A DNA stretch of 64,000 nt from Candidatus Multiplicimicrobium inquinatum (GCA_002344825.1 DDUN01000038.1:21061-85060), one strand, 5' to 3'; counted from the stretch's first letter, positions 6,517 through 61,930 are shown. Translations and numbers: made by a program. The notes: generated from the sequence alone by a model not told the origin.

Positions 6517-6520
6517 CTGA

Positions 6521-23676: not shown

Positions 23677-23706
23677 CCATAATGAGAGGACATAAAAAAG
23701 GTTTTT

Positions 23707-45200: not shown

Positions 45201-48200
45201 GACAGAGTTTATCGTGGGTGATTGGGGGAACGAAATGCCGCTTGGTTTGGGAGAAGAGGATTTTGAGTCGCTTGCCGTTGATTTAACCAATTTACGCGAT
45301 CAATACGGCTTGACTCCGCTTACGGCGCATTTCACCACAACGCATTTTGAAAATGAAAATTTGGCAGATTTTTCTTTGCATTCAAACCGCATTCAATACG
45401 GCGACACCGAGCTTGCGCGTTTTCTTGCCCGCATCGCTCCGTTTATTTATTTTGTGAAAGATCAGCCCGTCGAATTGCGCGATCAGGCGATTGCGCAAGC
45501 GGCGCAAGAACATGCCGCGCAATGGAAGCAGGATTTTGGCGCTAAATTTAACCGTTCCGAAATGCGGGCGGAAATCATTTTTCCCGATGCGCAAAAAGTG
45601 AAAGATGTTTTTGAGAAAGCGGAGGGATCCGCGGTGCTTTCAGAGGAAGACCTTGAAACTGCTGTTCAACAAGCTGTGGCGGAAAGCCGTGCGTGGCTTG
45701 CCGACCGTGTTAAACAAGAAACGCCCGAAAGCGAAAGACGGGCCATCGCGCTTCAGGCCGCTGAAGAAAAAATTGACGAAAGAACTTTGTATTTAGAGCC
45801 CGAGCATTGCGGTCAGCAATGCGGTTTTTCTTCGGGGGATGTCAGAGACAGACTGTATTCTCTTTTGGGGGCGAAGGTCAAAATTCGGCGTATTCAGGCT
45901 AAAGATGGCTTTGGTGTTGCGCAAAGCCAAAAACACCTTCTAACACTTATATCGTTGCCGGACAAATCCAAAATTTTCCTTATAGATTTAACTTTCGCGC
46001 AGTTTATGGATCGAAAGAACAGCCCCTCTCCTTACATTGGGATGCAATTAAAAAGCAATGCGCCCGATCAGCTGAATACGCTTTTACGCCGCGGCTATGT
46101 CGATTTAACCGAGAACAAAGACTTTTTAACGCAATACGCTCAATCTTTTCTATCTGAGGCGGAGGATGATGACGCGCATTATCCTTTAGAGCATTTTCCC
46201 GCTGAGTATATTGCTGATCACACCGATTTGATTTCACAGCCCATGAGTGATTTTATAAATATTCCGGCAACCGCCGAAGAGAATTTCAAAAAATCTTTGG
46301 AAGAGCGCGGAACAAAATTTCTCATTTTAGCAAAAGAGCGGCGTGAAAGAATTTGGAGGGGATTTTTAAGCTTTTACCGGAATAGCGCAGGGCAGCAAAG
46401 CAATTTAAAAACAGAGGATGGCCGGTTTTTTGAATTTAGCGCGCGCTCCGAAATGCGGAATGATGAAGTGGGCAACCCTTTTTTCGTAATGGTTCACGGG
46501 GAATCGCGATATTGGCAAAAATTAGAAAGCGAGGGTTATTTTTCAGAAGAAGACAGGTCTTTGATCTTTGACGCCGTGGATGGATTAATTCGTCCCGATG
46601 CTTCAATTTTAGATTTAATGTCAGGCAGAAAAATTAGCTTTTCAAAAAAGCAGCGAAATATCACCGCCCTTGGATTGACGGAAGCTATTCTGCGCCAAAA
46701 TAAAATCGACGGAAAGATCGATAATTTTGATGTGCAGGACCTAAACCGTAACTCTCAACTACCTTACGCTGATAAAGCATTTGATAGCGTGGTGATTTCT
46801 TTTGGCATCATGTATCTGACGCAGCCGGCGGAGGTTTTGAAGGAAGTGCGCCGTATTTTGAAGCCGGGGGGCAACTTGATCGTGATTTACGCCGAAGATT
46901 CCTGGGCAAGTTCTTCCGCGGTTGCTTTATGGAACCAACCAGGATTATTCCGCTATCGGGGAAGCCGTATTTATGGGCCGCCGTTTCTTTCGGATGATCA
47001 CCAGGAATTCAGTCAATTTTATGGCCAAAGCGATGTTTTAAACTTTTATCTGCGCGGCGCAGGCTTTGAAATTACGGAGCGAAAAAGAGTTTTTGGAAAA
47101 AAAGACACGCGGGTTGTTGGTTCTGAAATGTTTGCTGAGATGGAAACGCAGAATATTTACCAAATTGTTTCTTCCGGCTCGTCCGCGCGATCTGAAGCGC
47201 GGCTGGATGAGTTGCTGGATAAAAACCGCCGCAATGCGGATGAATGGAAAGAAACGATTCGTCTTATTAAAGCCACTTTGCCCTTGGCCGAGGAAGTGAC
47301 CCCTAGGATGATTGTTGAAGCACCGGCGGCAAAAGGAAAATTGCGTTATCAGACTTTAGTTATGGCGGTTCATCAAACCGGAGGAGATTATGCGAGCTTT
47401 GGACTTGATGCGGAGGAAAAAAACTCAATTTCTGAAAAAGAAACCAAAATCAAAGCGGCAGCTCGAGCTCTTCTAGCCGAAAAGAAAAGCCCAAGTCCTG
47501 AGGCCGTTTTGAGTTATCTTCAAAAACCAGCACATTTCTTTAAAGGGTTAGATGAAGGCGCGCTAAAAAAGTTAGGGCTTGTTTTTCCTGAAAAGAAAAA
47601 GACGGCGGATGAAAAATACATGCCTATTTTAGAAGCGCTTGTCCAAGCAGGAGAAAAATTCGAAACGGTTCGTGAGATTGCTATCGCGGCCGCAGGCGTT
47701 CCTGAGAGCTACGTGAAAGAGCTTGGCGCACCTAAGCTTACTGCTATGGGACTTCTCACAGGGGGAACAAACCCATATGAAAAACTTTCGCAAAGATTTC
47801 GAGTTGCTCGCCAAGCTAAAATTAATGCAGCGCAGGCTAGAAAAACCCCCGTACGAACAATTGCCGAGCTGTCTGAAAGCACAGGTATTCCAGCCACAAC
47901 TTTAGCGAAATATACCGCGCAGCAGTTAGAAGAGCTTGGTTACATTCCGCGCCCCGTCAAGCTTGAGCGCGCGGTAAAAGCTTTGCTAGTTGAAAATCCC
48001 GGGCAAATTATTTCTTATGAAGTATTGGCTCAGAAAATAACTGAAATGGGCCTTGAAGATCTGAAGCCAGAGCAGCTGCGCGAATGGAATGCTTATCAAA
48101 AGCCGCCTTTTACCGCACAGCCCGGCTGGAGGAAGCGTTTCGAGCCGATCATGAAAGCCGTTGAAGTACTTGGAACGAATGATAGCGAATTAGACTTATT

Positions 48201-51200
48201 TTTTAAGAACTCACTTGGCGTCCAAACCGTCTGGATTTGGCAGATTGAATACTTTGTGGCTAAAGCGGCGGATATTTTAAAACAAAACCCTTATTTTCGA
48301 AGTAGATGGAATGAACAAACAGGAAAAGATTTTACCGCCGCGGTGATGCGCGCGCATACGGTTACAGAACCGGAAAAAGCCGAGCTACAACAGATATCCG
48401 CTAAAGACGCGGCTTTAAAATGGCTTGTTGCCACCGGCGGCGCAGAAACACTTAAACCGGCTGGGCCCGTTTCTACGATTCAAATTTCTTTGGAAGGCTT
48501 TTCCGAAAACGGTCAAACCTTGTATGAAAAGTATGAGTATGAAAAAACAAACGGCCTGAGTGCTGAGATGCTTGTTGAGCAGCTTGGTTTTTCGGATCAG
48601 CCCGGAGCAAAAAGAAGGCTGACGGATATTAAACAGGTTTTAATTGATGGCATTGATCAAGGCCGGTCTTGGCATAAAATCGGTTTGTCTTCCCGGACGA
48701 GCGCCTTAGTTATTAGGCATAAAAACTATCAAAGGCCGCAAGCCTCTCTTGCCGAAAGCAAAACAAGCTTGAATGTCGAAAAAACCTCTGTTCCGAGAAG
48801 GGAATTAAAAACAAAACCATCTCCGTCTCGTGCTACGGGTCGCCGCGATGCCCGATATTGGACCATTGCCATGCTTTCTGCCGCTCAGCGTCTTGAGGCC
48901 GATAAATTCTTTGACGTGGCTGAGAAAGCGATTCAAGCAATGAGGCAAGAAGGCGTTCGCAAAGATTATCTAACAAGTTTTACGCGTGTTTTTGATAAGC
49001 ACGCTCGGCAAATGGATCTGCTTAGTCAGGAACCCGAAGATCGAGAAGCTTATCAGCGGTATCAGTTGATTTTAAAGTTAATAGGAGAGCTTCAAGCTTC
49101 TGCGCGCTCCGAAACCCGTTCGGTTCCCGCGGAACAATATTTTATTGTTGGGGATATTACCCGCGCGGATTTGATATGGTCGGAATCCGCGATGGGCTTA
49201 CCTGAAAGCGATGATCCTGAAAAATCAAAGCGCCTTTTAGCCATTCGTGATGCATGGAATTATTTGCGGCCGATTCAGCGTGAAATCATTCGGCAAAGAC
49301 ATGGAATGAGCCAACACAAATCGACGGATTGGAAAAGTATCGCAAATCGGATAAATCGACACAAGGTTGGCATTATTCAGCTTCACACACGCACACTTGA
49401 ACAACTTCAAAGCTTAGAAAATGGCGCAATGGCATTGTTTCAAGACACAGGTATTCCGTCCAAACATCTTCAAGAAGCTTTTAATTTGTTTTCAGGCAAG
49501 CCGCTTCATCAGTTAATTTTAAAATTAGAATACGGCTTGGATGGTATTCCGCGAGAAGAAGATGACACAGCCATCGCCAAGATTTTAAAAGAAAAAGTAA
49601 GCGCTGAACTCGATCGTGGGCAAGTCGCTGACCTCAGAAAACATCTGCTGAAGCAACTGAAAGTCTTGGCGGTAGAAAAGGGATGGACCGATCTTGAAAT
49701 CATGCAAAAAAGAAAACGAAAGAAAGCTGCGCCAAAGTGGACAGAAGCTGAGCTTGAAAAATTTATGCGCGAAAGATCCGATGAAGGACTTGCGGCCAGA
49801 GGCGGAGTTATTGATGGTGGTTTTGAGTATGTATATAACTTAATGAGAGCTAGGCATGGAACATGGGAAGCCGCCCTTCGATTTTACGGAAGAAATCCCG
49901 AAGCAATCCGTTTGCGCTCCGCCTTGCCAAACCGGCTGGATGAAGCTGCCGCCTTACAAGCAGCGGCAATCTCTTCGGTGAAAGCACAGCCAGCGACAGC
50001 TCTGGAAACGCCTGTCGTTGCGCCCGCCATAGAAACAATAATTTTAATGGAAGAAGAATATTTTTATATTCAAGATCTTATTTCTCGCGGAATAACTTTG
50101 GCAGAAATGGTGCGCAGATCCGACGGGCATCATCTTCGCCCGATTTTTGCAGCGATTATGGGAATCATCAAAGTCACTGCGCCGATTTTTGAAAAATATT
50201 CAAATTTTGAAAATCGAGAAACCGCGCTCAAAGTTTTCAATGACCTCAAAGAAATTGAACTTCGAATTCAAAAATTGCCGTCGATTCCGGAACCGGATTT
50301 GCCGAGGCATCGCCCAGTCTCTGCCGTGCCCGCTACGGCGCCTCAACCCGTTGTTTCGCCGGTACCGCTTTCGTCCCATGACAAATTAGCGCAAGATTTT
50401 CAGAATGGTTTGCGTACTATCCTGAATGCCTTGGAGAGCTTTCAAAGCCGCTCAATTCATAATCAGGAAGGATTTGACCGCTTTAAAGGAGAGCTTGCCG
50501 GTTTCCGCGACCGTTTCGACAAAATTAAAAAAGCACTTGAAGAAGAACCGGGTTTAGCAAGCCGCTACGCGCAGATTCAAACGCAGTTGCGGCTTTTTGA
50601 AAATGCTTTGCGCGAACCCGAAGCCAAATTAAAAACAGCCAAGACTCGTTTTGAGGGCGGTGCAGTTGCTCGCAAATCGGCGCTATCTGTGCCGCCATTG
50701 AATCGGCCTCGGCCTTCAGTTTCGAATGTTGCGGCCGCTGAGAGAAAGCATGGGCACGGACACTATGCGCGGGCAAAGCGTTTAGAAAAAAACGAAAAGC
50801 CGGCACAGACAAATGATTGGCGCACAGCATTAATTAAAACCGGAAAAACGAAAGAGGCGCTGGAAGAAGATTTACTTAATTTGGAAGAGCTCTTGTCTCA
50901 AGAGCCTCAGGATATTTCCGCGACGGAGAAGCCCCGCATTGTCCGACTGGCAGAAACCCAACAAGCATGGCTTCGTATTTTAGCGGCGCTTTTTCTGCCT
51001 TCAGAAAAGCCGCGCGCGGAGCTAAGCAAGGCTGCCAAAGAATTTGAGCTGCTTTTTAATCAGGATGCGCAGATTACGCGCGACAAACACCGCATGTTAA
51101 TGGCGGACCCGCGTTATCAGGCTTATGATGCCGCAGTGTCGCGTCTCAACGATGCTTCAAAAACAAGACTTGTTCCCGCAGGCAAATCGGTAAACGGCGC

Positions 51201-52665
51201 GGATCTTTTTACGTTAAGCATGGCAGAGATCATTGCCACCTCATTTTGGGATAAGCATGATCGTGATATTGCGCGCTCCGAAATGCGGGACCCTCAAAAA
51301 GCGGCCGAAGATATTTTTAATAATTTCTTTCTGGATCCTGTTTCACGGAAAAAACTTGTAACCACGCACCTAACCATTCGTACGATCGGGGAAGATCGCG
51401 GCCTCGACCCAGAAGATGTCGGGTTGTGGCTTTTGGAGTGGGATTTTGCGCGAGCCCTTGTTTTACAGCAGCTTGTCAGCAACCTGAATGGAATTCAAAA
51501 AACATCTCCCGAAAGACTTGAAAGCGCGCTTGATTTGGATTTGGCTTATTCGCAAGTCATGGAGCTTGCGGGAGGGCCTCAATATCGGCAAATTTTGAAT
51601 TTTTTCCACGACAGCGAAGAGCTTCCGATCGACTTTGGAAGGAAAGTCGATGAGGCTATTTCCGGAGTTAAAGCGGACGTCGCAGAAGTGCATGCTTCGC
51701 AGGGTTCTCAGGAGTTAATTTGGCGGCTTCGGAATGATGCGAATGACTACAAGCGGTACCTGGATTACATTACGGGCATTGTGGAGAAGGAGAATTTTTG
51801 GAAATTTGACCTTGAGCTTGAGAGGTTAGAGTGGCAGCAAAGCGTGTTTTTTCGGTCAGAGGCACGGTATCAGCAGATTTTGAACTCAGCGCTCAAACGA
51901 GTAAGTCCGGATCAAGCGGCTGAATCGTTGATGGAAATCGAATTCGAATTGTCGGTCCAGGAAGAAGAAAAATTGGACTCGGAATTAAAAGAGCTCGCGA
52001 TTTATTTTGCTGAACAAGGTGATTTAGAAAAAGCCGCCGTGATGTTTTGGCTGATTAAAGATGACAGCGTTGCGGCAAGTCTTACGCAAGAAACAAAAGG
52101 CCTTGAAAATCTTGGAAGACAGCGGGAGGCGCTTATCTCGTCCAATGCCCAGCACTTAATGCTTAGCGCAAATCGAACGGCAAGCGTTGAGCGGTCAGCG
52201 TTGAACGGTCCGAAGGCACGAATTTTAATCAGCCGCGAAGAGCTTGTCAAAATGTCAGAAGAAAACTTTTTGGCTTTTTACAAATTTTTCTATCAAAACC
52301 AAGAGTTGGAGCTGTCCGTCTACAGCTCCGGCTCAAAAAATCCAGAAGAGGAAACGCGTGTCGGCTTGCTTGAGGCCGTCCCCTCGGCAAAAACCGGCCG
52401 CGTTTCTTTCTTCCTGGACCTGTCTTCCGCGGCGCAAGGCGGGGAAGCGATTGAGTTTTCTTCTGTGCCGGGGACAAAAACAGTGCGTGGTAAAAAGATC
52501 GCCGCAGCGGATATTCGCACAGTCGAAGGCATGGCATCCGGATTTTTAGCCGCCATGGGTATGGAATATACCGAAGAGAAAGGCTTTGTCCGCGTGACGA
52601 ACGGGGTCGAAATCAGCCGCTTTTTTGAATTCTTGTCTTGGCAAGTCTTTGCGGCCTCGGCGTAA
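36202..52665 (+). CDS. Giant multidomain protein, 5487 aa (16.46-kb single ORF). It has a signal peptide, a Tiki/TraB-like N-domain, two DOT1-like methyltransferase folds, a PPP-type phosphatase, a Fic-like motif, TPRs, an internal TM bundle and a class I methyltransferase. It is punctuated by R-S-E-x-R motifs.
   Basis: One uninterrupted reading frame with an AAGGA RBS. The signal peptide is MMGRHQQFLKFVATAVIMCLLAQDAAVA. Motifs are read directly from the translation; see the findings for each. There are no stops in 16.4 kb, and codon usage is like the neighbouring genes. Confidence 0.75.
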   Translation: MMGRHQQFLKFVATAVIMCLLAQDAAVALPSQTTDYRPQTTDSAETPGVEGSHLRELGWLSTKNLGTIDEEFQGTNGKSITFILDAHDSLDAQKNIVRIIQRATASGRVRTVFEEGYEDELNTDEWFGDIQDDQIRRKVAYYYLDQLKIGAAEFAHINRQSRLGQRTKDKKQSTDWQLVGADDKQAYLENVRAFGDSEKVRAKILRDTQAIQRELKAVGAKQLTPEAQKWIADYQRFHEHALPLLDYLNRWLKFIPQEACPLLRRILSAAQDLELARSIQRIRAAEVLIEIKQFESSLEAHFFEERQTAEIWQAQKTMGSVEKLTNLKISSHELDELKQNLKMWDTESLAPLLARAKKNPVVLSKRWETLIQDALKFYELAHKRDMAVERALLSWNNSSAPLRASEQEPKDKEAVLVFGGFHREGITEILRRNGFSYTVVIPKITDFSKRHQLLYREAMSVGPRGSGHGARQMVQAARPLSGFYDHGFRYEIPLVAALAKENPKLDQRSFALLVERTLLEKSSTTVARGVNGENLSRPSASPNTRRLLFSARSESRKKAEKVLDYEEIDFGTKNRFLKKALSTYLTPKVFETGGFIYKWFGIQYFIFLLNQFDRQKILPRLPVSLSTPLTDSKPEEEISVSGRIKMGSALEIMHLAAFFIILALASMEHLSADNFGATLLHLGNVIANVYPIFVQRYVRARLWPRYIQIKENETNRSEARAGTAKKETVIRSPEVLRLALGKFNILNSGALHELFSSQQTSLQKLTKAERDLLRRIALIRDSTKKVMRKEKGENEFHGPFAPANVSQVMTVLKHLGAKQGEKIMDLGHGEGSVLFGAAALFGLQGLGGELNSYLYRKSAAIQAELVDAGILDAGAVELRKENFNQLDLRTADYVFFFSFGGKVDQEKLLRELKPGAKFILLGLKNTNWEQEELTGYSDFSKLLENGQFELVRFPELRTWVFTKRSARSEMREATRAQILEILRNFEQFRENIKVSEPVVWDLEGVELNRARPLLVLPDIHGDLEGMLAMLYFSGVIDREGLPTGSADVIQLGDVINGREQWFEADDYLRFLQQEFEERGLSLIRLAGNHDVKVLKAFDRKKYFLEWVYGPSERQLSGLREFFQQYLWKNPGKQGRQLLRKKFTSVGLPLHIYFILEKARDFYQAVKNDIQTGKIKAAARFGNLFVTHAGLSPAAMEEESLGADFDEKADVLNRAFQAWLLKESKPKQDERTADDETVDERIKIILKKALGMKTAEGFKKSSVWQLTGHRPKRHKRVSSDERMISADFDLARRFEVSEDDPVYPRILFLKENQLIEQEIKLPRFESPPSPADDGETLKEEFVARFSTEELKEFEIKPVSRIRLINLIQAAISQSGVLESASIQNDSVFVRVIETAAHGESSITLPAQNYHIGGYHSTLAEAYLQQNYLAGDEFLNTVHAIEVWRRSEARYLEAEKIYFDSPEFLSATHYFNEAVIVRDEAGTIQPMDWNKLITIYERLRGDDVNAEYTDEDRQLRLSHENEPWAREWLQNINRQDLTGDEALNLGVKIYRDSSEGDGRNQMFVKKAGFDRVRPPKKAGAYFERHPADGHHGLAWFLMNFFLMRNGYAPFYFKNEKEYLKIPIDYYNRDEGAARLRQLLRERVFSENKGNRSEARTSDEIGLQQIKNTEIALTPRAFHGRNWLRYPWMTTRKKVWEVFGLPDPRDAKPAQQKTSRDITFIKRKSDRHPVWVILEKDKVRFEEKFARELLMLRGKARSESRNDPKKQAAEFSKKANAIIKARGNLEEAARLAEEAIELDYTNAFAHVALIQARRGLGQYKDALEAFISAERDIPDNQYVRAMFPGILNSFAAQSAEQNRLDDAIDTFRKIFPDTPEELQESVKLTAMRAREALAYQAIERGDFGKALQIAEQINQILPSNQTTDLILATAFIHQGQPGRAEAQLDFSRRKFLARNPRSYLIKALSAAHKLRPNEAKAILNEAQDVFSAEKSIVGVIQKHSKLIEAGADVGELLNQVNRDPVLAAREERIIAGVSRSESRRRSQDEGEKILKLHTLYMDVMRRKANAWKDGAEKVESAGFLVTDVGYYPIDTDNEFEHLLAIFPKIRDKTNFNQPLRFLDLGSGAGKLLIQVLMLDAHLNGVGIEYDQALYEVSLDLAEEAAKQKLISRERAHFLKGDFSVPEFEKEISSADVLFHYQASSFDPALLEQALIRSMRPGAKLLVYGSSRDYFPKLSARAGFERAFDETARVTTYKRNFMPREPISYQDTAVVFVHTAGMGDHSLPLALDNRRVIKDAVKAMQNLGGKELEFYIDGHPSYLPPRPDRIRSRQENTAALTSPFSYDFDPVRNLRRFVMAGGECEACFQAALTSLLEESSGQAAPKEIHLAADAVYQVVPVPDEDDLRGVLHESKAVSSEQVFDMAAKTLARNRFTSIGKISRAENFLTQGTFSESSQVVVWDNYREMIDWIRADQKRSEARANFKAVWKSATTADGQMRMALGLLRRVEQSRKTRGLDLPDKLTEILKNADEIGVGPHAQLNNTIALLRILGIHVAFKLIPGLGTVGAAGLGMMALSGPWFFAGLSLFMLQGFLRAATTAWFLTGTQLPAKTGLAFLSAIPALGILAVPVYMLALKDQRGLGFAILDYFWNSAWDKLLFPSLMALGAGLFWVLRWGVNLGVFALITAASVIFFTGSKYMEWRDQGRTVLQKTVEAVSVIGALAGFGATIFYFGFFSLATLFVFTAMAVLFKGLQIFFDFRERLFRKSLREPGSPAAAEKKEGDFKNRSEERSALEIFDEAADNLLAYPKALLHSRGLEPYLDAFDREHYAWDETHQHWASKDFHPTITGAKRLILGSWEDIRRASPGEHARMKNFVAIRLNTTEGARSFYAFDDHGWSLQAYAEAHWRGEIPALGNTQIFIDKHGDDRKVRDGQYYAERFTAILRQDAGTNNNIEFDMGGFNNTLWSSGFIPKENHHRYHARMSWLKEMMIGFPNNRAVLLNVDTDVTEFIVGDWGNEMPLGLGEEDFESLAVDLTNLRDQYGLTPLTAHFTTTHFENENLADFSLHSNRIQYGDTELARFLARIAPFIYFVKDQPVELRDQAIAQAAQEHAAQWKQDFGAKFNRSEMRAEIIFPDAQKVKDVFEKAEGSAVLSEEDLETAVQQAVAESRAWLADRVKQETPESERRAIALQAAEEKIDERTLYLEPEHCGQQCGFSSGDVRDRLYSLLGAKVKIRRIQAKDGFGVAQSQKHLLTLISLPDKSKIFLIDLTFAQFMDRKNSPSPYIGMQLKSNAPDQLNTLLRRGYVDLTENKDFLTQYAQSFLSEAEDDDAHYPLEHFPAEYIADHTDLISQPMSDFINIPATAEENFKKSLEERGTKFLILAKERRERIWRGFLSFYRNSAGQQSNLKTEDGRFFEFSARSEMRNDEVGNPFFVMVHGESRYWQKLESEGYFSEEDRSLIFDAVDGLIRPDASILDLMSGRKISFSKKQRNITALGLTEAILRQNKIDGKIDNFDVQDLNRNSQLPYADKAFDSVVISFGIMYLTQPAEVLKEVRRILKPGGNLIVIYAEDSWASSSAVALWNQPGLFRYRGSRIYGPPFLSDDHQEFSQFYGQSDVLNFYLRGAGFEITERKRVFGKKDTRVVGSEMFAEMETQNIYQIVSSGSSARSEARLDELLDKNRRNADEWKETIRLIKATLPLAEEVTPRMIVEAPAAKGKLRYQTLVMAVHQTGGDYASFGLDAEEKNSISEKETKIKAAARALLAEKKSPSPEAVLSYLQKPAHFFKGLDEGALKKLGLVFPEKKKTADEKYMPILEALVQAGEKFETVREIAIAAAGVPESYVKELGAPKLTAMGLLTGGTNPYEKLSQRFRVARQAKINAAQARKTPVRTIAELSESTGIPATTLAKYTAQQLEELGYIPRPVKLERAVKALLVENPGQIISYEVLAQKITEMGLEDLKPEQLREWNAYQKPPFTAQPGWRKRFEPIMKAVEVLGTNDSELDLFFKNSLGVQTVWIWQIEYFVAKAADILKQNPYFRSRWNEQTGKDFTAAVMRAHTVTEPEKAELQQISAKDAALKWLVATGGAETLKPAGPVSTIQISLEGFSENGQTLYEKYEYEKTNGLSAEMLVEQLGFSDQPGAKRRLTDIKQVLIDGIDQGRSWHKIGLSSRTSALVIRHKNYQRPQASLAESKTSLNVEKTSVPRRELKTKPSPSRATGRRDARYWTIAMLSAAQRLEADKFFDVAEKAIQAMRQEGVRKDYLTSFTRVFDKHARQMDLLSQEPEDREAYQRYQLILKLIGELQASARSETRSVPAEQYFIVGDITRADLIWSESAMGLPESDDPEKSKRLLAIRDAWNYLRPIQREIIRQRHGMSQHKSTDWKSIANRINRHKVGIIQLHTRTLEQLQSLENGAMALFQDTGIPSKHLQEAFNLFSGKPLHQLILKLEYGLDGIPREEDDTAIAKILKEKVSAELDRGQVADLRKHLLKQLKVLAVEKGWTDLEIMQKRKRKKAAPKWTEAELEKFMRERSDEGLAARGGVIDGGFEYVYNLMRARHGTWEAALRFYGRNPEAIRLRSALPNRLDEAAALQAAAISSVKAQPATALETPVVAPAIETIILMEEEYFYIQDLISRGITLAEMVRRSDGHHLRPIFAAIMGIIKVTAPIFEKYSNFENRETALKVFNDLKEIELRIQKLPSIPEPDLPRHRPVSAVPATAPQPVVSPVPLSSHDKLAQDFQNGLRTILNALESFQSRSIHNQEGFDRFKGELAGFRDRFDKIKKALEEEPGLASRYAQIQTQLRLFENALREPEAKLKTAKTRFEGGAVARKSALSVPPLNRPRPSVSNVAAAERKHGHGHYARAKRLEKNEKPAQTNDWRTALIKTGKTKEALEEDLLNLEELLSQEPQDISATEKPRIVRLAETQQAWLRILAALFLPSEKPRAELSKAAKEFELLFNQDAQITRDKHRMLMADPRYQAYDAAVSRLNDASKTRLVPAGKSVNGADLFTLSMAEIIATSFWDKHDRDIARSEMRDPQKAAEDIFNNFFLDPVSRKKLVTTHLTIRTIGEDRGLDPEDVGLWLLEWDFARALVLQQLVSNLNGIQKTSPERLESALDLDLAYSQVMELAGGPQYRQILNFFHDSEELPIDFGRKVDEAISGVKADVAEVHASQGSQELIWRLRNDANDYKRYLDYITGIVEKENFWKFDLELERLEWQQSVFFRSEARYQQILNSALKRVSPDQAAESLMEIEFELSVQEEEKLDSELKELAIYFAEQGDLEKAAVMFWLIKDDSVAASLTQETKGLENLGRQREALISSNAQHLMLSANRTASVERSALNGPKARILISREELVKMSEENFLAFYKFFYQNQELELSVYSSGSKNPEEETRVGLLEAVPSAKTGRVSFFLDLSSAAQGGEAIEFSSVPGTKTVRGKKIAAADIRTVEGMASGFLAAMGMEYTEEKGFVRVTNGVEISRFFEFLSWQVFAASA

Positions 52666-54109: not shown

Positions 54110-57100
54110 ATGAAATTTAATATGCGCAAAATTTTTACCAATATTTTCATTCTTATCTTCCTAATTAACTCCGTCTTCCCCGCCCAAGCCCAATTTGTAA
54201 GGACAGAGCCAAAAGCTAAAACTTTCAGCGGAGTTGCTTTTCAAGCTATTTCTGTGCCCGAAAGTTTGGCTTTTAAGGATAAGAGCTTCCGCGGCAAAAA
54301 ACGCGAAGCGCTTTGGATTTTAAATGATGCCCATGCGGTTCCTTCCGCGCAGGAATCGATTTCACAAACGTTGCAGTATTTACAAAAAGAGGCCGGACTC
54401 AATTTTGTGGGAGTTGAAGGCGCGACAGGTTATTTTGAAACCACGCTTTTGCGTGCTTTTCCTGATTCTGAAAAACTGGAACAAAGCGTACGTGAGCTTT
54501 GGGGAAAAGGGGAAATTTCAGGCGCGACTTTGGCGGCTCTCACGAGCGGAAAGCATGCGCGTTATTTTGGAGTTGAAACATCCGGACTTTATGAACAAGG
54601 GTTAAGAAATTATTTTACCGCGAAGAAAACAGCGCCGGCGCATCAAGAAAAACTTAACGCAATACAGGCTCAAATAAGAGAGCTCAAGCAAAAATTATTT
54701 TCGAAGGAGCTGCGGCGATTTGACGATTTGCGCTTGGAGATGAAAACAAACTCTGCGCAAAGCTTGCCTCTCATTTTAGATTTGGCTTCGCGCGAGATCG
54801 CTGATGATATCAGCCAAAATTTTCAGCATCTTTTTGCGCTTGCCCAAGAGCTGAAAGGGAAACACGAAGTTTCATCCGAGGCTTTGTCGGTGTGGAGCCG
54901 CGAAATCGGGCTTAAGATTAAATCTCAAGCGGAACAGAAAAAATGGTCTGAAAAAGAGCAGGCGTGGCAAACCGGGAATTTTTCGGACGCCCAGTTCGCG
55001 GCTTTTGCGTTTCAGTTTTGCCGAGAGCAAGGCTGGGCTCCGCGAATTCCGGAAGAATTACAAGTTTTGGCCCGACGCGGTGAAACTCTTGCGCGCATGC
55101 GATCCAAAGTTTTTGTCCGGGAGTGGGAGCAGCTCCTGGTTCGGCTTGAAGTGGCTTTTGCAAAAAACCAGATAGAACGAGACCTAATGGTTTTAACGCA
55201 TCAAGCTGAACTTTTAAGCGACTGGCTTCGTTTAGAGCTTTCAAGTGAGGGTTGGAAACGGGCCGTAAAGCCATTCTCTTTTGTTTCCGACTCAAAAATG
55301 AAATTGCTTTCCGCGGACTTAGAAAGTCTGCGCCAACAGCTGGCGGCGTCCGATCTCGCCCGCTTTTATGAAAATGCTGAAGCGCGGGAAAAAGATTTGA
55401 TTGAAAACACACTGAAGCAAATGCGCCGTGAAGGACAAACAACCGGAGTTTTAATTGCGGGCGGTTTTCATACGGAAGGTTTAGCAAACAAGCTCGAGCA
55501 GCGGGATATTTCGTATTCGGTTTTAACGCCAGCCATCGCGGAGCTTCCTGCTGAGAGCCGCTACGATGCGCTTATGCACGGCGATGTCTCGTGGAAAAAT
55601 TACTTGCGCGCCGAGAACAAACAAATTCAGCTGTATGAATCTTTCGCGCGCGCTATGACGCATCAGCTGCTGGATTTGGAAAAACAACAAAAAGACCCGA
55701 TACGCATTCTCGCAAATTATAAAGCTTGGCGTGAACATTTAATTCGCGGTATTCACGCGGCTGACGCGAAAAGGAATTTACAAGCGCTGGCGCTTTTGGA
55801 TGAAATTGTTCTCGAGGCTATTTATCCGGATGAATACGCGCCGCTTAAACAAAACTGGAAAAAAACTTTTTCTAAAATATGGCCTGTTTTAACGAGACTT
55901 AAAAAAATCGGAAAACTTAGCGCGCCCTCTGCCGGCCCGGCGTTCTCCGGAGCGACAGCGATGTTTGCTTTGGGCAATCCCTTGGTGCCGGAGGCTCCTG
56001 TTATTGCGATGCCTGGGGTGGAAGCGCCCACCACTTCTCCCGCGGTATTCCCAAGCGAAACCACCGCGCCGACTTTGCCGCGATCCGAAATGCGTGTGAT
56101 GTCGCCGTTGATGGCACATATAAAAGAAGGCACAACGGATTTATTTTTTGTTCACGCCGCCGTTTCTTCTTTGTTAGACAAGCTGACCGAACGGCATGAA
56201 ACGGAACCCGTTTCTTTCGAAAATATTCGCGATCATTATCGTTGGAAATATTCAGAGCGATATAAGCGCCTCACCGAAAAAGGATTTGTGCCCGCTTTGG
56301 GTCTTCAAATGGAGCTTGCCGATGAACTTTTAAGCAACGCTCTTAATGCTCTTTCCGAAGGCGAGGCGAGCCTTTTTATAAAAAATGAAAAGGGATATTT
56401 TCCGCGCAATCCGCGGGCTTTGGCAATTAAAGGAGACCACGCGGCTTATATTCGCCGTGATTTGATCCGAGCGATTGAAGTCGGCGGCAATGGTTTTAAA
56501 ACGGTTATTCAGGATTATGTGCGGAACGCGAATGAAAGTGAATTTTTGAATCCCATCGAGGGGAAGTGGCCGATTCTTAAGGCTGTGTTGCTTTTAGAAA
56601 AAAGACAAAGAGAAAAACTGCTTCGCTTGCTTTTGGAAGAGAAGACCTTCACCAATCTGCCGCTTGTGCAATCTATGATTCTTATGCTGCAAGCCGATGA
56701 TTCCCTCGGCTGGCTTCGTCAGCAGATAATTGAGAGCATTCAAAAAAAGCAAGGGGCTGTTTCTGTTCCGACAAAAAATAAAAATTTAAAGATATTCGCG
56801 TTTGTTTCAAAAAACAGTGTTCGTTTTGTTTTGATTAAAAACGCTTCCGGAAAAATTATTGATACGGGCGTAGAAAATCTTGGAATGGCGGATCAGGGAG
56901 TTGTTTTAGCTGATTTGTTCAGAGGGGGATTAAAACTTGAAGACGTTAACGTGCTTGAAGTTCGTAATGCGGTTACCAATGCGTTTTACAGCGCCTATGC
57001 CGTCAGCGGTATGATCCGCAACGGGCTCTCGGTTTTTATTCCCGCAGAAACAAATGAAGAGTGGCAGGTTTTGGATTTCGTCCATCGATCCGAGACGCGG

Positions 57101-60100
57101 CTAAGAAAAGAAAACGGATTTGTGAACGTGAAAGATTTTCCGTTTCTTTCAAATCATACGGTTTATAGCCGTCAATTTGAGGCCGGTTTGCCGCGGCATT
57201 TGCTTGAAAAAATCGAAAGCGCGGCCTTAACAGGAGAAGATCAGCTGGTCAAAGAATTTGGGATTTCGAAAGAACTTGCGGCCGCGCTTGTTGCGCAAGT
57301 TAATTTAACCGGCGGGCTGGGCGCGTTAATGCCGGATTTATTCGAAGCCTGGGAAGCGAATGCCATGCCGGTGACAGGCATTCATCCGCTTTGGAATTGG
57401 ATCAAGAACCGCCCTGAAAAAGCTCTGGGCAAGGATGGCAGCCGGCTTCCGCTTGGGAATATGGTAAAGCAGCACATGGAAGATACGGGAATTCATTTCG
57501 AAGTCGCCCTTCCGATCACACAGCGGTATCGTTCTTACGCTCAAAATAGCCGCGCGCGCGAGCTTTTAACCGCGGCCGGGCATAAGCAAATTTTTGTGCG
57601 CATTTATAAGACATACTCTCATTTTCAAAATGCGCCCCAATACTATCTCGATTCGTATTACGTTGAAAACGGCAAAGAGGTTCCGGTTTTCGGCGAAGTT
57701 TATGACGATGACAATGCTCTGCGAGATTTTCATATGGCTGTTTTTAGCCAGGCCAGCCAAACGCTGATTCAAAAACTTGAAGGTAAGGGTGACCCTGAAG
57801 ACATTGTTTTATTGGATCACGAGGTGTTTACGAGCATTCCCGCAGCGCGTCTTAACAGCGCCAAGCTCGCAACTTTGAACCACACGGTTTTTCGTCCGGG
57901 GTTGTATGAGCCCTCTGAGAGCTCGTATGAATTATTGGGTTTCCCGGAATGGCTGCGAGGCACGATTGCGCATGACGGCAAAATCAGTATCGCGGATTAC
58001 ACGGCCGAAGCTTATGACCTCTTGACGGGCGTTGGTTTGGTGGAGCATGTCCCGGCATTGCATACCAATATTTTCCGCTGGGGCTGGCAGAAGCTGCGCG
58101 GATTTTTTGACGGCAAGCGGCGCAGTACCAATGGGGTTTATCTCCCGCGCTGGCAATCGCATCCGCGTCGTAAGCTGATAGAAGATTATAAAAAGAGGCT
58201 TAATATTCCAGTGCCAAAATTCGGGTTGCCCGTTGAAGCCTCCGACCATGATTTTTTTATTGAGCTTGATAAGAAAAAAAATGCGGCGCTAAAAAAAGAC
58301 TTTATTTTAAAAAATGAAGCGGTGGGCGCTTCCGATGCCGCCGAGCTTTTGATTTGGCTTTATGAAAAGCACGGCTTCGAATGGCTTAAGGACTCTTTGG
58401 GCGCGTTTATCGAAAAAGGAAATGTCGCAAATTTAATCGCGGACCTCAACGGAATGCGCGCAAATTTGAATGACATGATCGGAAAAGAGGCATCAGCTGA
58501 CAAACAGTGGGAGGCCTTTTTTAGACAGCGCGGAAAACTTATTCATGCCTTGCTTCAAGATCCGATCGGAGCGAATGTCCGGCGCCAGGTCCCTTATAAA
58601 GGACCGGATAAATATGTGGAAGTTTTAAACAGCTTTTTGACGTTGGCGAAAGCTCAAACCGGAAAGAGCTTTGATCAGGGGGCTCTTTTTCAAAGAATCA
58701 AAGGGCAGGTTGAAAAAGGCGACTTTGGCGATCCTGAATTTCAGGATTTGCGGGCGGCGCTTAAAAACTCGGCAATTAGTCAGGAAATACGTGAGCAAAT
58801 GGCGCGCGTGATTATTGGCGGGCGTACTTTTGACATGGGCGCGCATGAGCGCTTTTTGTATATCCGCTTTATGGCGAATTTGCTTGGTCTTGAAAGCCGG
58901 TTTGCTACGGTTGAAAATTATAATTATCACGAGGCGCGATTAATTTTTAAAGGCGCGCAAGCCGGCATTATGCTTTCGGATGAAATTTTGGAAGCTTCTG
59001 CCACCAGTATGGAAAAAGCGCAAACCAATATGGCCGAGGTGATCGGTGTTTTTGGCGGAGCGGTTCCTGAAATTTGGATCATTCGCAGTACGCAAACGGG
59101 TGAAATCAAAGAGGTTTTAGACAAAGATAGTGATCCCGCGATGACGCATAATGAACTGCGGGAAAAACTTAAAAGCGGGGAGTGGGAGATTTTGAATGGT
59201 ATTTTGGTGGAATACCAGGATGGTTCCAGGAGTGAACAAATCGGCGGGTTGCGCAGGCCTTCCGCGGCCAGCTTGGTGGCGGCGCTGAAACAATTGCGCG
59301 CGTCACGCGGCAACCCCGAAACCCGTCATCAACGCATGTATGACACTTTGGCCTCGTCGTGGAAAGTAGACATGGTTACAAGCCAGGCTCAGGCCCACGC
59401 GTATTTACTGGAGGGCATGCTTAAAATCAAAGCAGATCAAAAAGCATTGCTTGGGAAAACAAAAGCCGCAGATGAAGATTTTAAGCACATCGCTTCCGCC
59501 GGAGTTTTTAACTGGAATGTTCAGCGCGAAAATCTGCATCCTTTTTATCGTGGCGGCATGCTTGGTTTTGTGAGCGCTTTCCGCTGGTTAAAAAGCTGGC
59601 AAAAACCGCATCAAAATTCATCGGACGGCATGGCTTCACGGGGCGAAGACGCGCTGGCGGCGATTCAATTTCACGCGGCAAACGGGGATGTTTTTGAATA
59701 CTTGCTCAAGAATCTTGCGCCGCTTTCGGGCGGCGTCGAGCCTTTGCGCGAGCGTATTCGAGTTTTGCAGGAGCAGGCAAAAAAAGCGGAGAAAGAACGT
59801 GTGCGCGTCGCGTTAAATCTCGAAGCGCTCGAGCTTGTGGATCAGTTTTTTGTAAAAACGGCCGGCGAATGGCTGGAAGAATATGTTGCGGATACAACAT
59901 CGCCGGAAAGACGGCAAGCTTTGCGTGAAGTTTTAGAAAAATCCGCTTTTGTGGAAGAGCATAAAAACAAACCGCAACAGCCATGGGCGGAATATATCGC
60001 GCGTTATCTGGATCATCATCCTTTGGCAACCCCGCTTGAAACTTCCGATACTCGTGTGCGCTCCTTTGTTTTTGCAAAATCAGATCAGCCGATTTTAATT

Positions 60101-61930
60101 AACCTGAGTGTGAACGCGGCATCTTCCGAAGAAAAGGATGCGGCCGGAAAAACCATCCGCAAAGCGCGCGCGACGGTTTATTTGAATGAGTCAGCCGCAA
60201 AGATTTTGGGCGGCGAAAGCTTTGGAAAGCAGGAGCTTTATCGTGTGACAGAGCCGGCACGGGAAATTGATTATAAATTGCATACCGCGGTGGAACTGCA
60301 AGATGCTTTGGGAGTTGGAATTCCGATGCCGCTTGGCGTTGAGGTTTTGGCTTGGCGCCCCGCGCAGGCTGAGCTTGCGGGTGTTTTTCAGCGCGCTTTT
60401 CAGGCAAAAAGTTTTTCTGATGCCGTGAACACGCTTTCGCAGCGCGTTCAGGACGCGGCTAGCTCGCATACCGCCGATGATTTCTCGAGGTTCTCAGCGA
60501 ACGGGGAAGCGAAGGAGGCTTTTTTAAGAGAGTTAGCAGATTTAGCGAGTCTTGATCCCCGCTCCGCCGAGCACCTTTTTACGCAAGACGGGCGCAAAGC
60601 CGTGATGGCCTTTATTTTAATGACGCATCCTGAACTTTTAGATTCCGTCAAGCAATGGCATCGTGATTTTTACGCAAAGCTACAAATTTTGCGCTCGGAA
60701 AACCCGGATTTTTTTAATAGCCGCTCGTCTGTGCGCGTGATTAACTCATCCCGCAACGGGACTTTGGTGTTAGCGCGCCAAGACGGGAATGGAAATTTAT
60801 TGTTTGCTTCGCTGCTTTTCTATGTGAGCCAACGGGAGATTAACTTTGACGGCAAAGTAAACACAACTTTAAGCGGCTTGGAAGGACTGCTTGTCAGATC
60901 ACCTTATAAGATTACGGATGGGCTTACCAGACAGATTTATGGAGAGCGTTCCGATTTGCTTAGCTCCTGGGTCAACCGCATTCCGTTTAATGACCGCTCT
61001 CAGTTTTTGATTCTCGAGCCGGTCAAGCGATCTGAGTTCCGCGGTTTAGCGGAATCGCAGCAACGTTCCGAAGTCGTAACTGAAGGACGCATGGAGGCAA
61101 AAGGGGAAAGTTTCTTGGTTGCCGCGATTAGATTTATGGGTTTTGCTTTTAACCCGGGCCGGGCCGCGTGGGCGGAAGAAGTTTTGCACCCTGTTTACGC
61201 CGCGGGAATTTTGGCGAGAACGCATCCTGAACATTTTGTTCCGGCTTTAATTTTGTCTTCAAACGGAGAGTGGATGACGCCTCATCAAGAAAACCGTTCT
61301 GAAGCGAGGCTTTGGGATCAGCTGGGGGCGTTTGCTTCTAAGCATTTTGAAGCGCATCCGAATACACCGCTTCATTTAGGATTTACGGTTCTTTATGATG
61401 AATCGCTGGATGAAATGTTATTGGCGTACGCTGAAAAAATAAATATGCTTCAAAAAGAGAACGATCGGGGATCGCTCATTAAGAATCGTTTGACAGTCTT
61501 TTTGGCGCCGAATCAAAAGATGTCCGAAAATTTTTCTCGGCAGGCGCCAAAACTTGGAATTGTTTCGAAGCAGCTCAGCGCCGGTAAAGAAGCGGCGCAA
61601 ATCGTTTCTTTTTTGAAAACGGAATCCGCGCGATCTGTTTTTGCTTATGGGTTTGAAGCCTTTAATCTTTCGGATCAGGAGTTGGGCGGTTTGCGCCCGC
61701 TCATTGTGGTCAGCGCTTTTTCACCCGAAGCCACTTTTAATCCTGCGGTTATGTTGAATTTGGCCACGGCTTCAGAGGGAAGCATTACCGCCGACGTGAT
61801 TCAACGGGTGTTTGTCGGGTATCAGCAATTTGTTCGTTTAACCAACGGATCACTTGCTTTGTTGGAAAATATTTTGAAAGACAAACTCCTCGAGCTTCAG
61901 GTAAAACAGCTTATTTCCTCGATGGCGTAA
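54110..61930 (+). CDS. Giant multidomain protein, 2606 aa. It has a signal peptide, an N-domain paralogous to the 36202 giant, and a central GT35 alpha-glucan phosphorylase-like region. It also carries R-S-E-x-R motifs.
   Basis: AAAGGAGAG RBS. The signal peptide is MKFNMRKIFTNIFILIFLINSVFPAQAQ. N-domain motifs are ILNDAHAVPSAQESI…VGVEGATGYFE and LIAGGFHTEGLANKLEQRDISYSVLTPAI (compare ILDAHDSLDAQKNI…FEEGYE and VFGGFHREGITEILRRNGFSYTVVIPKI in giant 1). GT35-like motifs appear in order: IVLLDHEVFTSIPAARL, ATLNHTVFRPGLYEP, VPALHTNIF, STNGVYLPRWQ, EILEASATSMEK, GVFGGAVPEI. Confidence 0.75.
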   Translation: MKFNMRKIFTNIFILIFLINSVFPAQAQFVRTEPKAKTFSGVAFQAISVPESLAFKDKSFRGKKREALWILNDAHAVPSAQESISQTLQYLQKEAGLNFVGVEGATGYFETTLLRAFPDSEKLEQSVRELWGKGEISGATLAALTSGKHARYFGVETSGLYEQGLRNYFTAKKTAPAHQEKLNAIQAQIRELKQKLFSKELRRFDDLRLEMKTNSAQSLPLILDLASREIADDISQNFQHLFALAQELKGKHEVSSEALSVWSREIGLKIKSQAEQKKWSEKEQAWQTGNFSDAQFAAFAFQFCREQGWAPRIPEELQVLARRGETLARMRSKVFVREWEQLLVRLEVAFAKNQIERDLMVLTHQAELLSDWLRLELSSEGWKRAVKPFSFVSDSKMKLLSADLESLRQQLAASDLARFYENAEAREKDLIENTLKQMRREGQTTGVLIAGGFHTEGLANKLEQRDISYSVLTPAIAELPAESRYDALMHGDVSWKNYLRAENKQIQLYESFARAMTHQLLDLEKQQKDPIRILANYKAWREHLIRGIHAADAKRNLQALALLDEIVLEAIYPDEYAPLKQNWKKTFSKIWPVLTRLKKIGKLSAPSAGPAFSGATAMFALGNPLVPEAPVIAMPGVEAPTTSPAVFPSETTAPTLPRSEMRVMSPLMAHIKEGTTDLFFVHAAVSSLLDKLTERHETEPVSFENIRDHYRWKYSERYKRLTEKGFVPALGLQMELADELLSNALNALSEGEASLFIKNEKGYFPRNPRALAIKGDHAAYIRRDLIRAIEVGGNGFKTVIQDYVRNANESEFLNPIEGKWPILKAVLLLEKRQREKLLRLLLEEKTFTNLPLVQSMILMLQADDSLGWLRQQIIESIQKKQGAVSVPTKNKNLKIFAFVSKNSVRFVLIKNASGKIIDTGVENLGMADQGVVLADLFRGGLKLEDVNVLEVRNAVTNAFYSAYAVSGMIRNGLSVFIPAETNEEWQVLDFVHRSETRLRKENGFVNVKDFPFLSNHTVYSRQFEAGLPRHLLEKIESAALTGEDQLVKEFGISKELAAALVAQVNLTGGLGALMPDLFEAWEANAMPVTGIHPLWNWIKNRPEKALGKDGSRLPLGNMVKQHMEDTGIHFEVALPITQRYRSYAQNSRARELLTAAGHKQIFVRIYKTYSHFQNAPQYYLDSYYVENGKEVPVFGEVYDDDNALRDFHMAVFSQASQTLIQKLEGKGDPEDIVLLDHEVFTSIPAARLNSAKLATLNHTVFRPGLYEPSESSYELLGFPEWLRGTIAHDGKISIADYTAEAYDLLTGVGLVEHVPALHTNIFRWGWQKLRGFFDGKRRSTNGVYLPRWQSHPRRKLIEDYKKRLNIPVPKFGLPVEASDHDFFIELDKKKNAALKKDFILKNEAVGASDAAELLIWLYEKHGFEWLKDSLGAFIEKGNVANLIADLNGMRANLNDMIGKEASADKQWEAFFRQRGKLIHALLQDPIGANVRRQVPYKGPDKYVEVLNSFLTLAKAQTGKSFDQGALFQRIKGQVEKGDFGDPEFQDLRAALKNSAISQEIREQMARVIIGGRTFDMGAHERFLYIRFMANLLGLESRFATVENYNYHEARLIFKGAQAGIMLSDEILEASATSMEKAQTNMAEVIGVFGGAVPEIWIIRSTQTGEIKEVLDKDSDPAMTHNELREKLKSGEWEILNGILVEYQDGSRSEQIGGLRRPSAASLVAALKQLRASRGNPETRHQRMYDTLASSWKVDMVTSQAQAHAYLLEGMLKIKADQKALLGKTKAADEDFKHIASAGVFNWNVQRENLHPFYRGGMLGFVSAFRWLKSWQKPHQNSSDGMASRGEDALAAIQFHAANGDVFEYLLKNLAPLSGGVEPLRERIRVLQEQAKKAEKERVRVALNLEALELVDQFFVKTAGEWLEEYVADTTSPERRQALREVLEKSAFVEEHKNKPQQPWAEYIARYLDHHPLATPLETSDTRVRSFVFAKSDQPILINLSVNAASSEEKDAAGKTIRKARATVYLNESAAKILGGESFGKQELYRVTEPAREIDYKLHTAVELQDALGVGIPMPLGVEVLAWRPAQAELAGVFQRAFQAKSFSDAVNTLSQRVQDAASSHTADDFSRFSANGEAKEAFLRELADLASLDPRSAEHLFTQDGRKAVMAFILMTHPELLDSVKQWHRDFYAKLQILRSENPDFFNSRSSVRVINSSRNGTLVLARQDGNGNLLFASLLFYVSQREINFDGKVNTTLSGLEGLLVRSPYKITDGLTRQIYGERSDLLSSWVNRIPFNDRSQFLILEPVKRSEFRGLAESQQRSEVVTEGRMEAKGESFLVAAIRFMGFAFNPGRAAWAEEVLHPVYAAGILARTHPEHFVPALILSSNGEWMTPHQENRSEARLWDQLGAFASKHFEAHPNTPLHLGFTVLYDESLDEMLLAYAEKINMLQKENDRGSLIKNRLTVFLAPNQKMSENFSRQAPKLGIVSKQLSAGKEAAQIVSFLKTESARSVFAYGFEAFNLSDQELGGLRPLIVVSAFSPEATFNPAVMLNLATASEGSITADVIQRVFVGYQQFVRLTNGSLALLENILKDKLLELQVKQLISSMA

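Follow-up and report, generated by a model that had tools for sequence, protein, structure and literature searches.

Does a giant exported protein of Candidatus Multiplicimicrobium inquinatum carry a phosphorylase of the glycosyltransferase family GT35? The question was raised by a stretch of 64,000 nucleotides from this organism (GCA_002344825.1, DDUN01000038.1:21061-85060), called the window throughout, with all nucleotide positions counted from its first letter. A sequence-only reading had placed an alpha-glucan phosphorylase-like region at 57560-59100, within a single open reading frame (ORF; 54110..61930, + strand) of 2606 amino acids (aa). The identical protein is on record for a Candidatus Omnitrophica metagenome-assembled genome (GCA_003535755.1, contig DPYK01000156.1) under the NCBI name "hypothetical protein DIS66_06085". 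A GT35-like phosphorylase module within this giant is supported by four independent lines of evidence, namely transitive homology, a family profile, an AlphaFold model, and homologues that pass the Pfam model PF00343. The region was found where it had been proposed, but the domain is larger: the confidently predicted fold extends from approximately aa 1010 to 1790 (~57137-59480) and lies in a conserved cassette of ~1300 residues (aa 998-2306; 57101-61027). With reasonable, though not high, confidence we read the module as a divergent but intact GT35 enzyme in a Sec-exported multi-cassette protein, which would carry out phosphorolysis dependent on pyridoxal phosphate (PLP) outside the cytoplasm, the cassette probably being processed at flanking R-S-E-x-R motifs.

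The relationship to GT35 became visible through intermediate sequences and family profiles. Using aa 1000-1850 as query, an exhaustive phmmer search of 1.84 billion (1.84e9) representative proteins gave 73 matches. Forty of them had E < 1e-30; 28 of these 40 were 2000-7500 residues long and none was shorter than 763. The weaker matches (E 6.5e-13 to 6e-5) included proteins of ~400-1100 aa which pass the PF00343 gathering score of 27 bits (P0045, P0046, P0049, P0052, P0054, P0055, P0063, P0067). In these bridging proteins the PF00343 regions are the very ones aligned to the query, at query positions 256-392, 552-662, or both. The same gathering score was passed by the colinear full-length homologue P0006 (45% identity, 29.8 bits) and likewise by P0019 (34.3 bits) and P0029 (33.7 bits), and at NCBI a homologous protein of 3186 aa (P0077) already bears the name "glycogen/starch/alpha-glucan phosphorylase". 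When a profile of 8 family members was run against all PDB sequences, the best 48 distinct matches were all GT35 phosphorylases, led by 4bqe_A (E 2.5e-8). Only 4 further sequences were matched, all with E >= 0.026, among them the GT5 starch synthase 6gng (E 0.026, at the GGLG loop). A hidden Markov model (HMM) of 36 family sequences detected GlgP (5.4e-13) and MalP (5.8e-13) of Escherichia coli, while the E. coli synthase GlgA gave no significant match (score -2.8). Aligned by hhalign to a two-sequence MalP/GlgP template, the family matched in the PLP region only (91.8% probability), together with a weak TNG region. The bridging sequences stay far under both NCBIfam cutoffs (TIGR02093, 552.9; TIGR02094, 191.7), and for TIGR02094-type proteins in the PDB (9l6i, 20yr) the family profile gives no higher scores than for classical GT35 enzymes (29.7 versus 35.7 bits). 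From these sequence comparisons, the module is best described as a separate deep branch of GT35, outside either curated subfamily.

The predicted structure pointed in the same direction. An AlphaFold2 model built from an alignment of 8 sequences was poor (pLDDT 63.5, below 50 in the motif regions), and the 50 Foldseek matches listed for it were all GT35, at a TM-score of ~0.22. Using an alignment of 32 sequences, the pLDDT rose to 85.8 with a pTM of 0.87, and disorder was confined to the first 9 and the last ~60 residues. Low pLDDT was also seen right after the motif RSETR (aa 993-997). The best 50 Foldseek matches of this model in the PDB were again all GT35 phosphorylases (E 4e-17 to 3e-15, TM-scores 0.45-0.55). 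They came from yeast, Klebsiella, rabbit, E. coli, Arabidopsis, potato, and Streptococcus, and the alignments of ~900 columns spanned the whole length. At the level of the fold, the phosphorylase assignment that had been expected from the sequence was borne out, and the model corresponds to the two-domain GT-B fold of the GT35 type.

The active-site motifs were compared in detail. All six motifs listed in the sequence-only reading are present in the +1 frame of ORF 54110..61930 and in the order given (aa 1232-1248, 1254-1268, 1314-1322, 1339-1349, 1625-1636, and 1646-1655; together 57803-59074, + strand). The register of the third, VPALHTNIF against VAALHSDLV, was off by 5 residues: the HMM puts the His of the GT35 A-L-H-S on the invariant H1313 (VEH), and H1318 is variable. 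Three hallmarks had been overlooked. The first is the glycine loop T-G-G-L-G (aa 1067-1071; 57308..57322, +), the counterpart of G-N-G-G-L-G in GT35 and of K-T-G-G-L-G in GT5, found at 114 in MalP and at 124 in GlgP. The second, N-V-R-R-Q-V-P-Y-K-G (aa 1489-1498; 58574..58603, +), corresponds to the GT35 phosphate-site motif K-R-x-H-E-Y-K-R and is colinear with MalP 534-541. The third is I-G-G-R-x-F (1569-1574). Altogether, nine hallmarks of GT35 occur in the same linear order as in E. coli MalP and GlgP (positions in MalP/giant): GGLG (114/1068), N-H-T (345/1257), G-V..H (419/1307), T-N-G..R-W (449/1340), [KR]-R-x-x-x-Y-K (534/1491), G-[GA]-[KR] (571/1570), [ND]-Y (612/1602), E-A-S-x-T-x-x-x-K (638/1628, the lysine being K1636), and, after this lysine as the last motif, G-A-x-x-E (659/1649). 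The spacing at the C-terminal end is the same in both proteins, with 26 residues from [ND]-Y to E-A-S and 21 from E-A-S to G-A. This C-terminal Rossmann core (E-N-Y...E-A-S-A-T-S-M-E-K...G-G-A-x-P-E; aa 1602-1655; 58913..59074, +) is covered by ungapped HMM alignments. Among them, the putative PLP lysine K1636 (codon 59015-59017) in E-A-S-A-T-S-M-E-K aligns without gaps to the PLP-lysine motif of PDB phosphorylases, E. coli GlgP, and MalP (K645).

Conservation was assessed in 36 family members sharing 30-50% identity. In the N-terminal half G1068-G-L-G1071, D1076, E1238, P1244, N1257, H1258, V1308, H1313, N1341, G1342, and W1348 were invariant in all 36, and in the C-terminal half N1489, R1491, R1492, V1494, Y1496, K1497, G1570, G1571, R1572, F1574, A1609, E1628, A1629, K1636, and E1654. 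The conservation of the PLP lysine and of the phosphate-binding residues, to which attention had been drawn beforehand, was found in all 36 members. We take the counterparts in rabbit muscle phosphorylase to be the PLP lysine K680, the phosphate site K568/R569/Y573/K574, E672, N484, and the loop G134-L136. As judged from the alignment, the pattern of invariance matches an active site kept by purifying selection, and from it we infer that the module is functional, either as a PLP-dependent phosphorylase or as a transferase closely related to one.

Several points weigh against this reading. Searching Pfam with the whole 2606-aa protein returned no PF00343 match even at E <= 1. The lone NCBIfam match was TIGR02094 ("alpha-glucan family phosphorylase"; aa 1586-1654 against profile positions 447-515, E 0.0013-0.024), which at 13-18 bits (13.4-17.6) against 191.7 leaves the window protein under every curated GT35 model. 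The direct profile match that the sequence-only reading had proposed to look for was therefore not obtained; taken literally as a refutation, however, this result would be a false negative. The TM-scores reach just ~0.5, a value which we attribute to ~100 residues of helical insertions and to differences in domain closure. Within the active site, the equivalent of rabbit His377 in the N-D-T-H region (MalP 307, giant 1236) is lost. The sequence here is D1236-H1237-E1238-V1239-F1240, with Val/Phe at the His position in a register taken from colinearity, and the family consensus at this place is [DE]-N-E-V-F. His377 contacts O6 of the glucosyl residue in the rabbit enzyme, and recognition of glucosyl O6 is possibly altered in the module. 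Furthermore, Ala and Ser replace G675 and G677 of the E-A-S-G-T-G-N-M-K loop, the Ser being shared by E. coli GlgP. To our knowledge no GT35 enzyme has been characterised that resides anywhere other than in the cytoplasm or in plastids. A Sec-exported PLP enzyme would need a cofactor acquired outside the cytoplasm, and the supply of cofactor, phosphate, and substrate in that compartment would be the main difficulty.

Two other explanations draw on these points. The first is a chance resemblance of motifs in a large low-information protein devoid of any GT35 domain. Apart from the blank Pfam result and the one mis-registered motif of six, it could appeal to searches with the single sequence, since phmmer against PDB sequences gave nothing relevant and a word-indexed homologue search returned one partial protein only. 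As independent sequence and structure methods gave E-values of 1e-8 to 1e-17 with matches exclusively to GT35, this explanation can be regarded as refuted. The second holds that the module is a dead or repurposed GT35 relative, a glucan-binding or scaffolding part of a surface-exposed giant which works without PLP. The problematic loading of PLP upon Sec export, the lost His377 equivalent, the altered Gly-rich PLP-phosphate loop, and the failed curated cutoffs are all compatible with it, and giant proteins of Omnitrophota have been discussed mainly as adhesion or coat proteins (PMC10066038). Nevertheless, the strict invariance of the lysine, both arginines, Tyr-Lys, Glu, and GGLG at 30-50% identity argues for a conserved active site rather than for a binding scaffold, and the module is accompanied by bona fide glucan enzymes in related proteins (see below). 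We consider a dead module unlikely.

The proposal of a secreted giant was supported. At the N-terminus there is a Sec-type signal peptide (MKFNMRK followed by a hydrophobic core and A-Q-A/Q, aa 1-27; 54110..54190, +), recognized by reading of the sequence and by a hydropathy scan, in which it was the sole hydrophobic segment of all 2606 aa. The same type of signal peptide (basic n-region, hydrophobic core, small-x-small site) was found in 18 of the 19 full-length homologous giants inspected, the one exception being P0075, whose N-terminus shows no evident signal peptide. Most homologues share a colinear order of signal peptide, ~600-aa head domain, variable inserts, GT35-like domain, and C-terminal extension. 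In the stand-alone modules P0019 (1032 aa) and P0029 (940 aa) a signal peptide of their own lies directly ahead of the module. For this reason the module is an autonomous unit, and in the inspected full-length proteins except P0075 it appears to be exported. With each GTDB species represented by one genome, a scan for N[VLI]RRQVxYKG identified 47 loci. Most of those with a phylum-level name are labeled Candidatus Omnitrophota/Omnitrophica, about one quarter are labeled only "uncultured bacterium", and a handful carry other submitter labels. Judged by this pattern, the family appears almost confined to Omnitrophota.

The partner cassettes of the homologous giants bear on the direction of the reaction. 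In the 3942-aa protein P0011 a GH77 4-alpha-glucanotransferase (aa 2445-2727) and an amylo-alpha-1,6-glucosidase GDE_C domain (aa 2898-3287, E 2e-98) follow immediately downstream of the module, and the 4318-aa protein P0005 has a phosphoglucomutase (PGM) cassette (aa 3088-3557) as well as HEAT repeats. An Omnitrophica contig (L001; JAQTQY010000177.1, 1-3768) encodes a GlgA C-terminus that matches TIGR02095 right through to its end; R-S-E-V-R, R-S-E-M-R, and the module come next, in this order. A frameshift near nucleotide 1380, probably an assembly error, splits the module of this locus into P0001 ("glycosyltransferase, partial") and P0009 ("hypothetical"). In P0072 the module is preceded by a full GT5 plus GT1 synthase. 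GlgA as a constant neighbor was rejected, as it adjoins the module only in L001/P0001 and P0072. These two fusions could nevertheless indicate a GT35 fold working in synthesis or transfer, which would build or remodel alpha-glucan from glucose-1-phosphate, possibly even from a nucleotide sugar as GT5 enzymes do. GT35 reactions are reversible, the G-G-A-x-P-E motif resembles the "GG..E" of GT4/GT5, the T-G-G-L-G region in the N-terminal part scores weakly on Pfam Glyco_transf_5 in P0027, P0015, and P0019, and weak Glycos_transf_1 matches were obtained for P0017 and P0015. On the other hand, the family HMM passes over E. coli GlgA, the PLP lysine is invariant here while GT5 enzymes have no lysine at that position, the best structural matches are all GT35, and the partner cassettes of the other giants (GH77, debranching enzyme, PGM) are catabolic. 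A role in synthesis is therefore rated as improbable. Part of the "GT5" signal described from Omnitrophota giants may stem from this module, whose N-terminal half weakly matches Glyco_transf_5 in some members.

The cassettes of the giant are set off from each other by a short motif, R-S-E-x-R. An N-terminal head domain (aa ~30-657; 54197..56080, +), colinear in most homologous giants, is closed by RSEMR (aa 658-662; 56081..56095, +), as it is in P0006 (669) and P0017 (653). A variable cassette (aa 663-992; 56096..57085, +) follows, for which relatives were not detectable: it was covered by none of the 73 retrieved proteins, is absent from the colinear homologue P0006, and gave no Pfam match and, as a single sequence, no PDB match. 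RSETR (aa 993-997; 57086..57100, +) stands directly upstream of the GT35-like GT-B catalytic domain (aa 998-1790; 57101..59479, +), which is delimited by sequence homology, predicted fold, and motifs. The cassette continues in a C-terminal extension (aa 1791-2306; 59480..61027, +), co-conserved with the domain in about half of the homologous giants, free of RSExR, and without a Pfam match; a single-sequence search of aa 1790-2606 found no PDB match. It ends at RSEFR (aa 2307-2311; 61028..61042, +). A fourth copy, RSEAR (aa 2396-2400; 61295..61309, +), was added by the motif count and precedes a C-terminal cassette (aa 2401-2606; 61310..61927, +) which is conserved in P0006 only.

Besides these 4 copies (aa 658, 993, 2307, 2396), 15 were counted in a second giant of 5487 aa encoded at 36202..52665 (+), where every "RSE" is part of an RSExR (sites at 37855, 38347, 39100, 40531 ... 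51853). Shuffling predicted 0.06 and 0.17 copies for the 2606-aa and the 5487-aa protein, respectively, with a maximum of 3 in 2000 shuffles, and no copy occurs in the window's remaining 23 ORFs (10,214 aa). Codon choice for R, S, and E varies freely, indicating selection at the protein level. A DNA-level repeat, or a hidden Shine-Dalgarno sequence with an internal start codon, was rejected on account of these varying codons and of an x that is only sometimes Met. Across 131 RSExR sites x was L, M, S, V, A, or T, and positions -1 to -3 were enriched in A, S, T, G, P, and N. The motif marks boundaries that were defined independently by homology and by Pfam. At aa 658 the head ends, aa 993 lies 5-15 residues ahead of the first conserved residue of the GT35 cassette, and at aa 2307 the cassette ends. 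An RSExR stands at the position equivalent to aa 993 in P0003, P0004, P0005, P0008, P0010, P0015, P0016, P0020, P0022, P0024, P0030, and P0034. Positions predicted from the alignment and those observed agreed within 0-9 residues in the homologues (predicted/observed: P0003 1421/1421, P0008 3848/3848, P0022 751/751, P0010 1244/1245, P0015 1098/1099, P0005 713/715, P0004 2346/2343). At the cassette end the motif was found in P0004 (3745), P0005 (2009), P0010 (2477), and P0017 (2412), and inside the ~1300-aa cassettes it occurred in none. Similarly, the PGM cassette of P0005 sits between the RSExR sites 2967 and 3767, and the Pfam domains of the 5487-aa giant fall between successive sites. The motif is restricted to certain lineages: it is missing from some homologous giants, in which no substitute over-represented pentamer was found either. 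Being far above chance, selected as protein, and placed at homology- or Pfam-defined boundaries, RSExR is read as an inter-cassette junction and as a candidate processing site, at which cleavage would take place. A protease domain was not detected within the window. The literature searched contained neither the motif nor a relevant paper joining Omnitroph* and polyprotein.

Combining these observations, the favored reading of an extracytoplasmic GT35 phosphorylase would work as follows. The 2606-residue multi-cassette protein would be exported by Sec and cut, or at least hinged, at the R-S-E-x-R junctions, so that the GT35-like cassette is probably released or delimited. The domain would bind PLP through K1636 and hold phosphate by R1491/R1492/Y1496/K1497 and the TGGLG loop, converting alpha-1,4-glucan (glycogen or maltodextrin) and phosphate to glucose-1-phosphate. 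It would be active extracytoplasmically, degrading either the glucan of a host or prey cell or a cell-associated glucan, and the debranching enzyme, amylomaltase, and PGM cassettes of sister proteins would complete the route to glucose-6-phosphate. Omnitrophota have been described as ultra-small, host-dependent bacteria (PMC10066038), for which glycogen of the host or prey would be an obvious substrate. Extracellular processing of alpha-glucan (glycogen) would fit a host-dependent or predatory lifestyle. A bolder version holds that both giants of the window and dozens of Omnitrophota relatives are Sec-exported polyproteins, each made of a shared head domain at the N-terminus and a series of unrelated enzyme cassettes, which are cut at RSExR and thereby release an extracytoplasmic PLP-dependent glycogen phosphorylase. 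We regard this version as doubtful. If true, the sister-protein debranching enzyme, amylomaltase, and PGM cassettes would jointly harvest host or prey glycogen as sugar phosphates, and RSExR would be the missing cleavage site of the Omnitrophota giants.

What appears to be new is a deep GT35 branch overlooked by standard models, apparently restricted to a single phylum, provided with an export signal (except P0075), and delimited as a cassette by junction motifs. The finding is not categorically new, as the family is a classical one, at least one homologous giant is already named a phosphorylase in GenBank, and enzyme domains in such giants have been described in a preprint (10.1101/2023.11.21.568195). 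Glycogen phosphorylase is a textbook cytoplasmic enzyme, and standard annotation misses this branch of it. The module offers a concrete, testable enzymatic role for a part of the Omnitrophota giant proteins. RSExR provides specific candidate cleavage sites that can be checked in existing metaproteomes, and a rational way of splitting giants for structure prediction.

The glucan theme proposed in the sequence-only reading was right, given the GlgA, GH77 plus GDE, and PGM cassettes of homologous giants, but the reason offered for it was weak. It had been drawn from sugar genes ~25 kb upstream, and a PGM gene (28246..29892) and a DUF4301 gene (26740..28245) are indeed present there; their linkage to the giant is without evidence. 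A functional link was rejected, as both gene products lack a signal peptide and unrelated genes lie between, namely ABC-transporter, CorA, and RlmN-like genes, the 5487-aa giant, and YchF. From the sequence data, the partner cassettes back an alpha-glucan function far better than these two genes do. Upstream of the sugar genes, at 22711-26559, a hemerythrin gene (- strand) adjoins a quinol-type NorB-like nitric oxide reductase (cytochrome-c-like N-domain plus COX1). The AT skew is unusually high at 16000-22000 (0.22-0.31). Large ORFs without Pfam match at 16503..18647 (714 aa) and 19231..21504 (757 aa) are followed by a MafB19-like/cytidine deaminase ORF at 21516..22016. The beginning of the window (1154-11513) is a typical replication-origin neighborhood with yidC (- strand) and then dnaA, dnaN, gyrB, and gyrA. 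Nearly all later genes, both giants included, are on the + strand, and the cumulative GC skew climbs throughout the window.

The second giant (36202-52665, +) is divided by RSExR into 16 segments of 105-723 aa. Domains were recognized for a CrtO-like acyltransferase (584-702), TPR repeats, a DOT1-like methyltransferase (2100-2218), and a second S-adenosylmethionine-dependent methyltransferase (~3485-3562), and a cluster of ~5 hydrophobic helices was observed at aa 2538-2748. Most of its segments belong to no detectable family. Directly upstream lies a 554-aa ORF on the - strand (34370-36034) with a hydrophobic N-terminus and no Pfam match. After the signal peptide, a head domain of ~450-600 aa is common to the two giants of the window and to most homologous giants; in the 5487-aa giant it spans aa ~63-460 (HMM E 1.8e-37). 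Its residues D-A-H, E-G, R, and G-G-x-H are invariant in the alignment. A head of the Tiki/TraB/ChaN protease type was considered, the only lead being a weak Pfam match. PF04187 (ChaN/Tiki) matched weakly in 2 of 9 members (best E 0.0064), no PDB match was found for the head domain, and the E. coli TraB-family protein YbaP scored 2.2 bits with the head-domain HMM, below shuffled controls.

Compared with known systems, the giant resembles viral and eukaryotic polyproteins with R-x-x-R proprotein convertase sites in being a long ORF of unrelated enzymes with a short basic motif at the boundaries and small residues before it. In contrast to them it is bacterial and Sec-exported, and its candidate site R-S-E-x-R is not a known protease consensus. 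Closer at hand are the giant proteins of the same phylum described as "Archaeovorins" (bioRxiv 10.1101/2023.11.21.568195), which are exported or extracellular and contain GT5/GT1, TPR, HEAT, and sugar-metabolism domains. They mix glycosyltransferase-like domains with domains of central-carbon enzymes (PGM, PGI, TIM, and others), and proteolytic processing has been proposed for them with cleavage points stated to be unknown (10.1101/2023.11.21.568195). A phosphorylase or GT35 domain has 0 occurrences in that preprint (10.1101/2023.11.21.568195). The giants of the window differ from the Archaeovorins in their smaller size (2.6 and 5.5 thousand aa), a distinct head domain, and an explicit R-S-E-x-R motif. 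The GT5 synthases (GlgA; TIGR02095, PF08323) share with the module the GT-B fold, the K/T-G-G-L-G loop, and the R....K-G phosphate motif, but the module has the PLP-lysine motif and the structural neighbors of GT35, and its family HMM is blind to E. coli GlgA. The shorter archaeal and bacterial GT35 branch TIGR02094 (PDB 9l6i, 20yr) has a compact N-terminal domain like that of the module and presumably also the RR..YK form of the phosphate motif. With the GT35 phosphorylases proper (PF00343, TIGR02093; E. coli MalP/GlgP, rabbit muscle glycogen phosphorylase, Arabidopsis PHS2 4bqe) the module has in common the predicted two-domain GT-B fold, the motifs GGLG, NHT, GV..H, TNG..RW, [KR]R...YK, GG[KR], [ND]Y, EASxTxxxK, and GA..E, and an equal spacing from [ND]Y over the lysine to the Glu. 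It differs from them by an identity of only ~13%, scores below the curated cutoffs, and the missing His377 equivalent. Its N-terminal domain is shorter, helical insertions of ~65 and 40 residues lie between TNG, RR..YK, and GGR, and a C-terminal extension of ~500 aa follows. Finally, the GT35 phosphorylases are free cytoplasmic dimers, whereas this module forms part of an exported multi-cassette giant.

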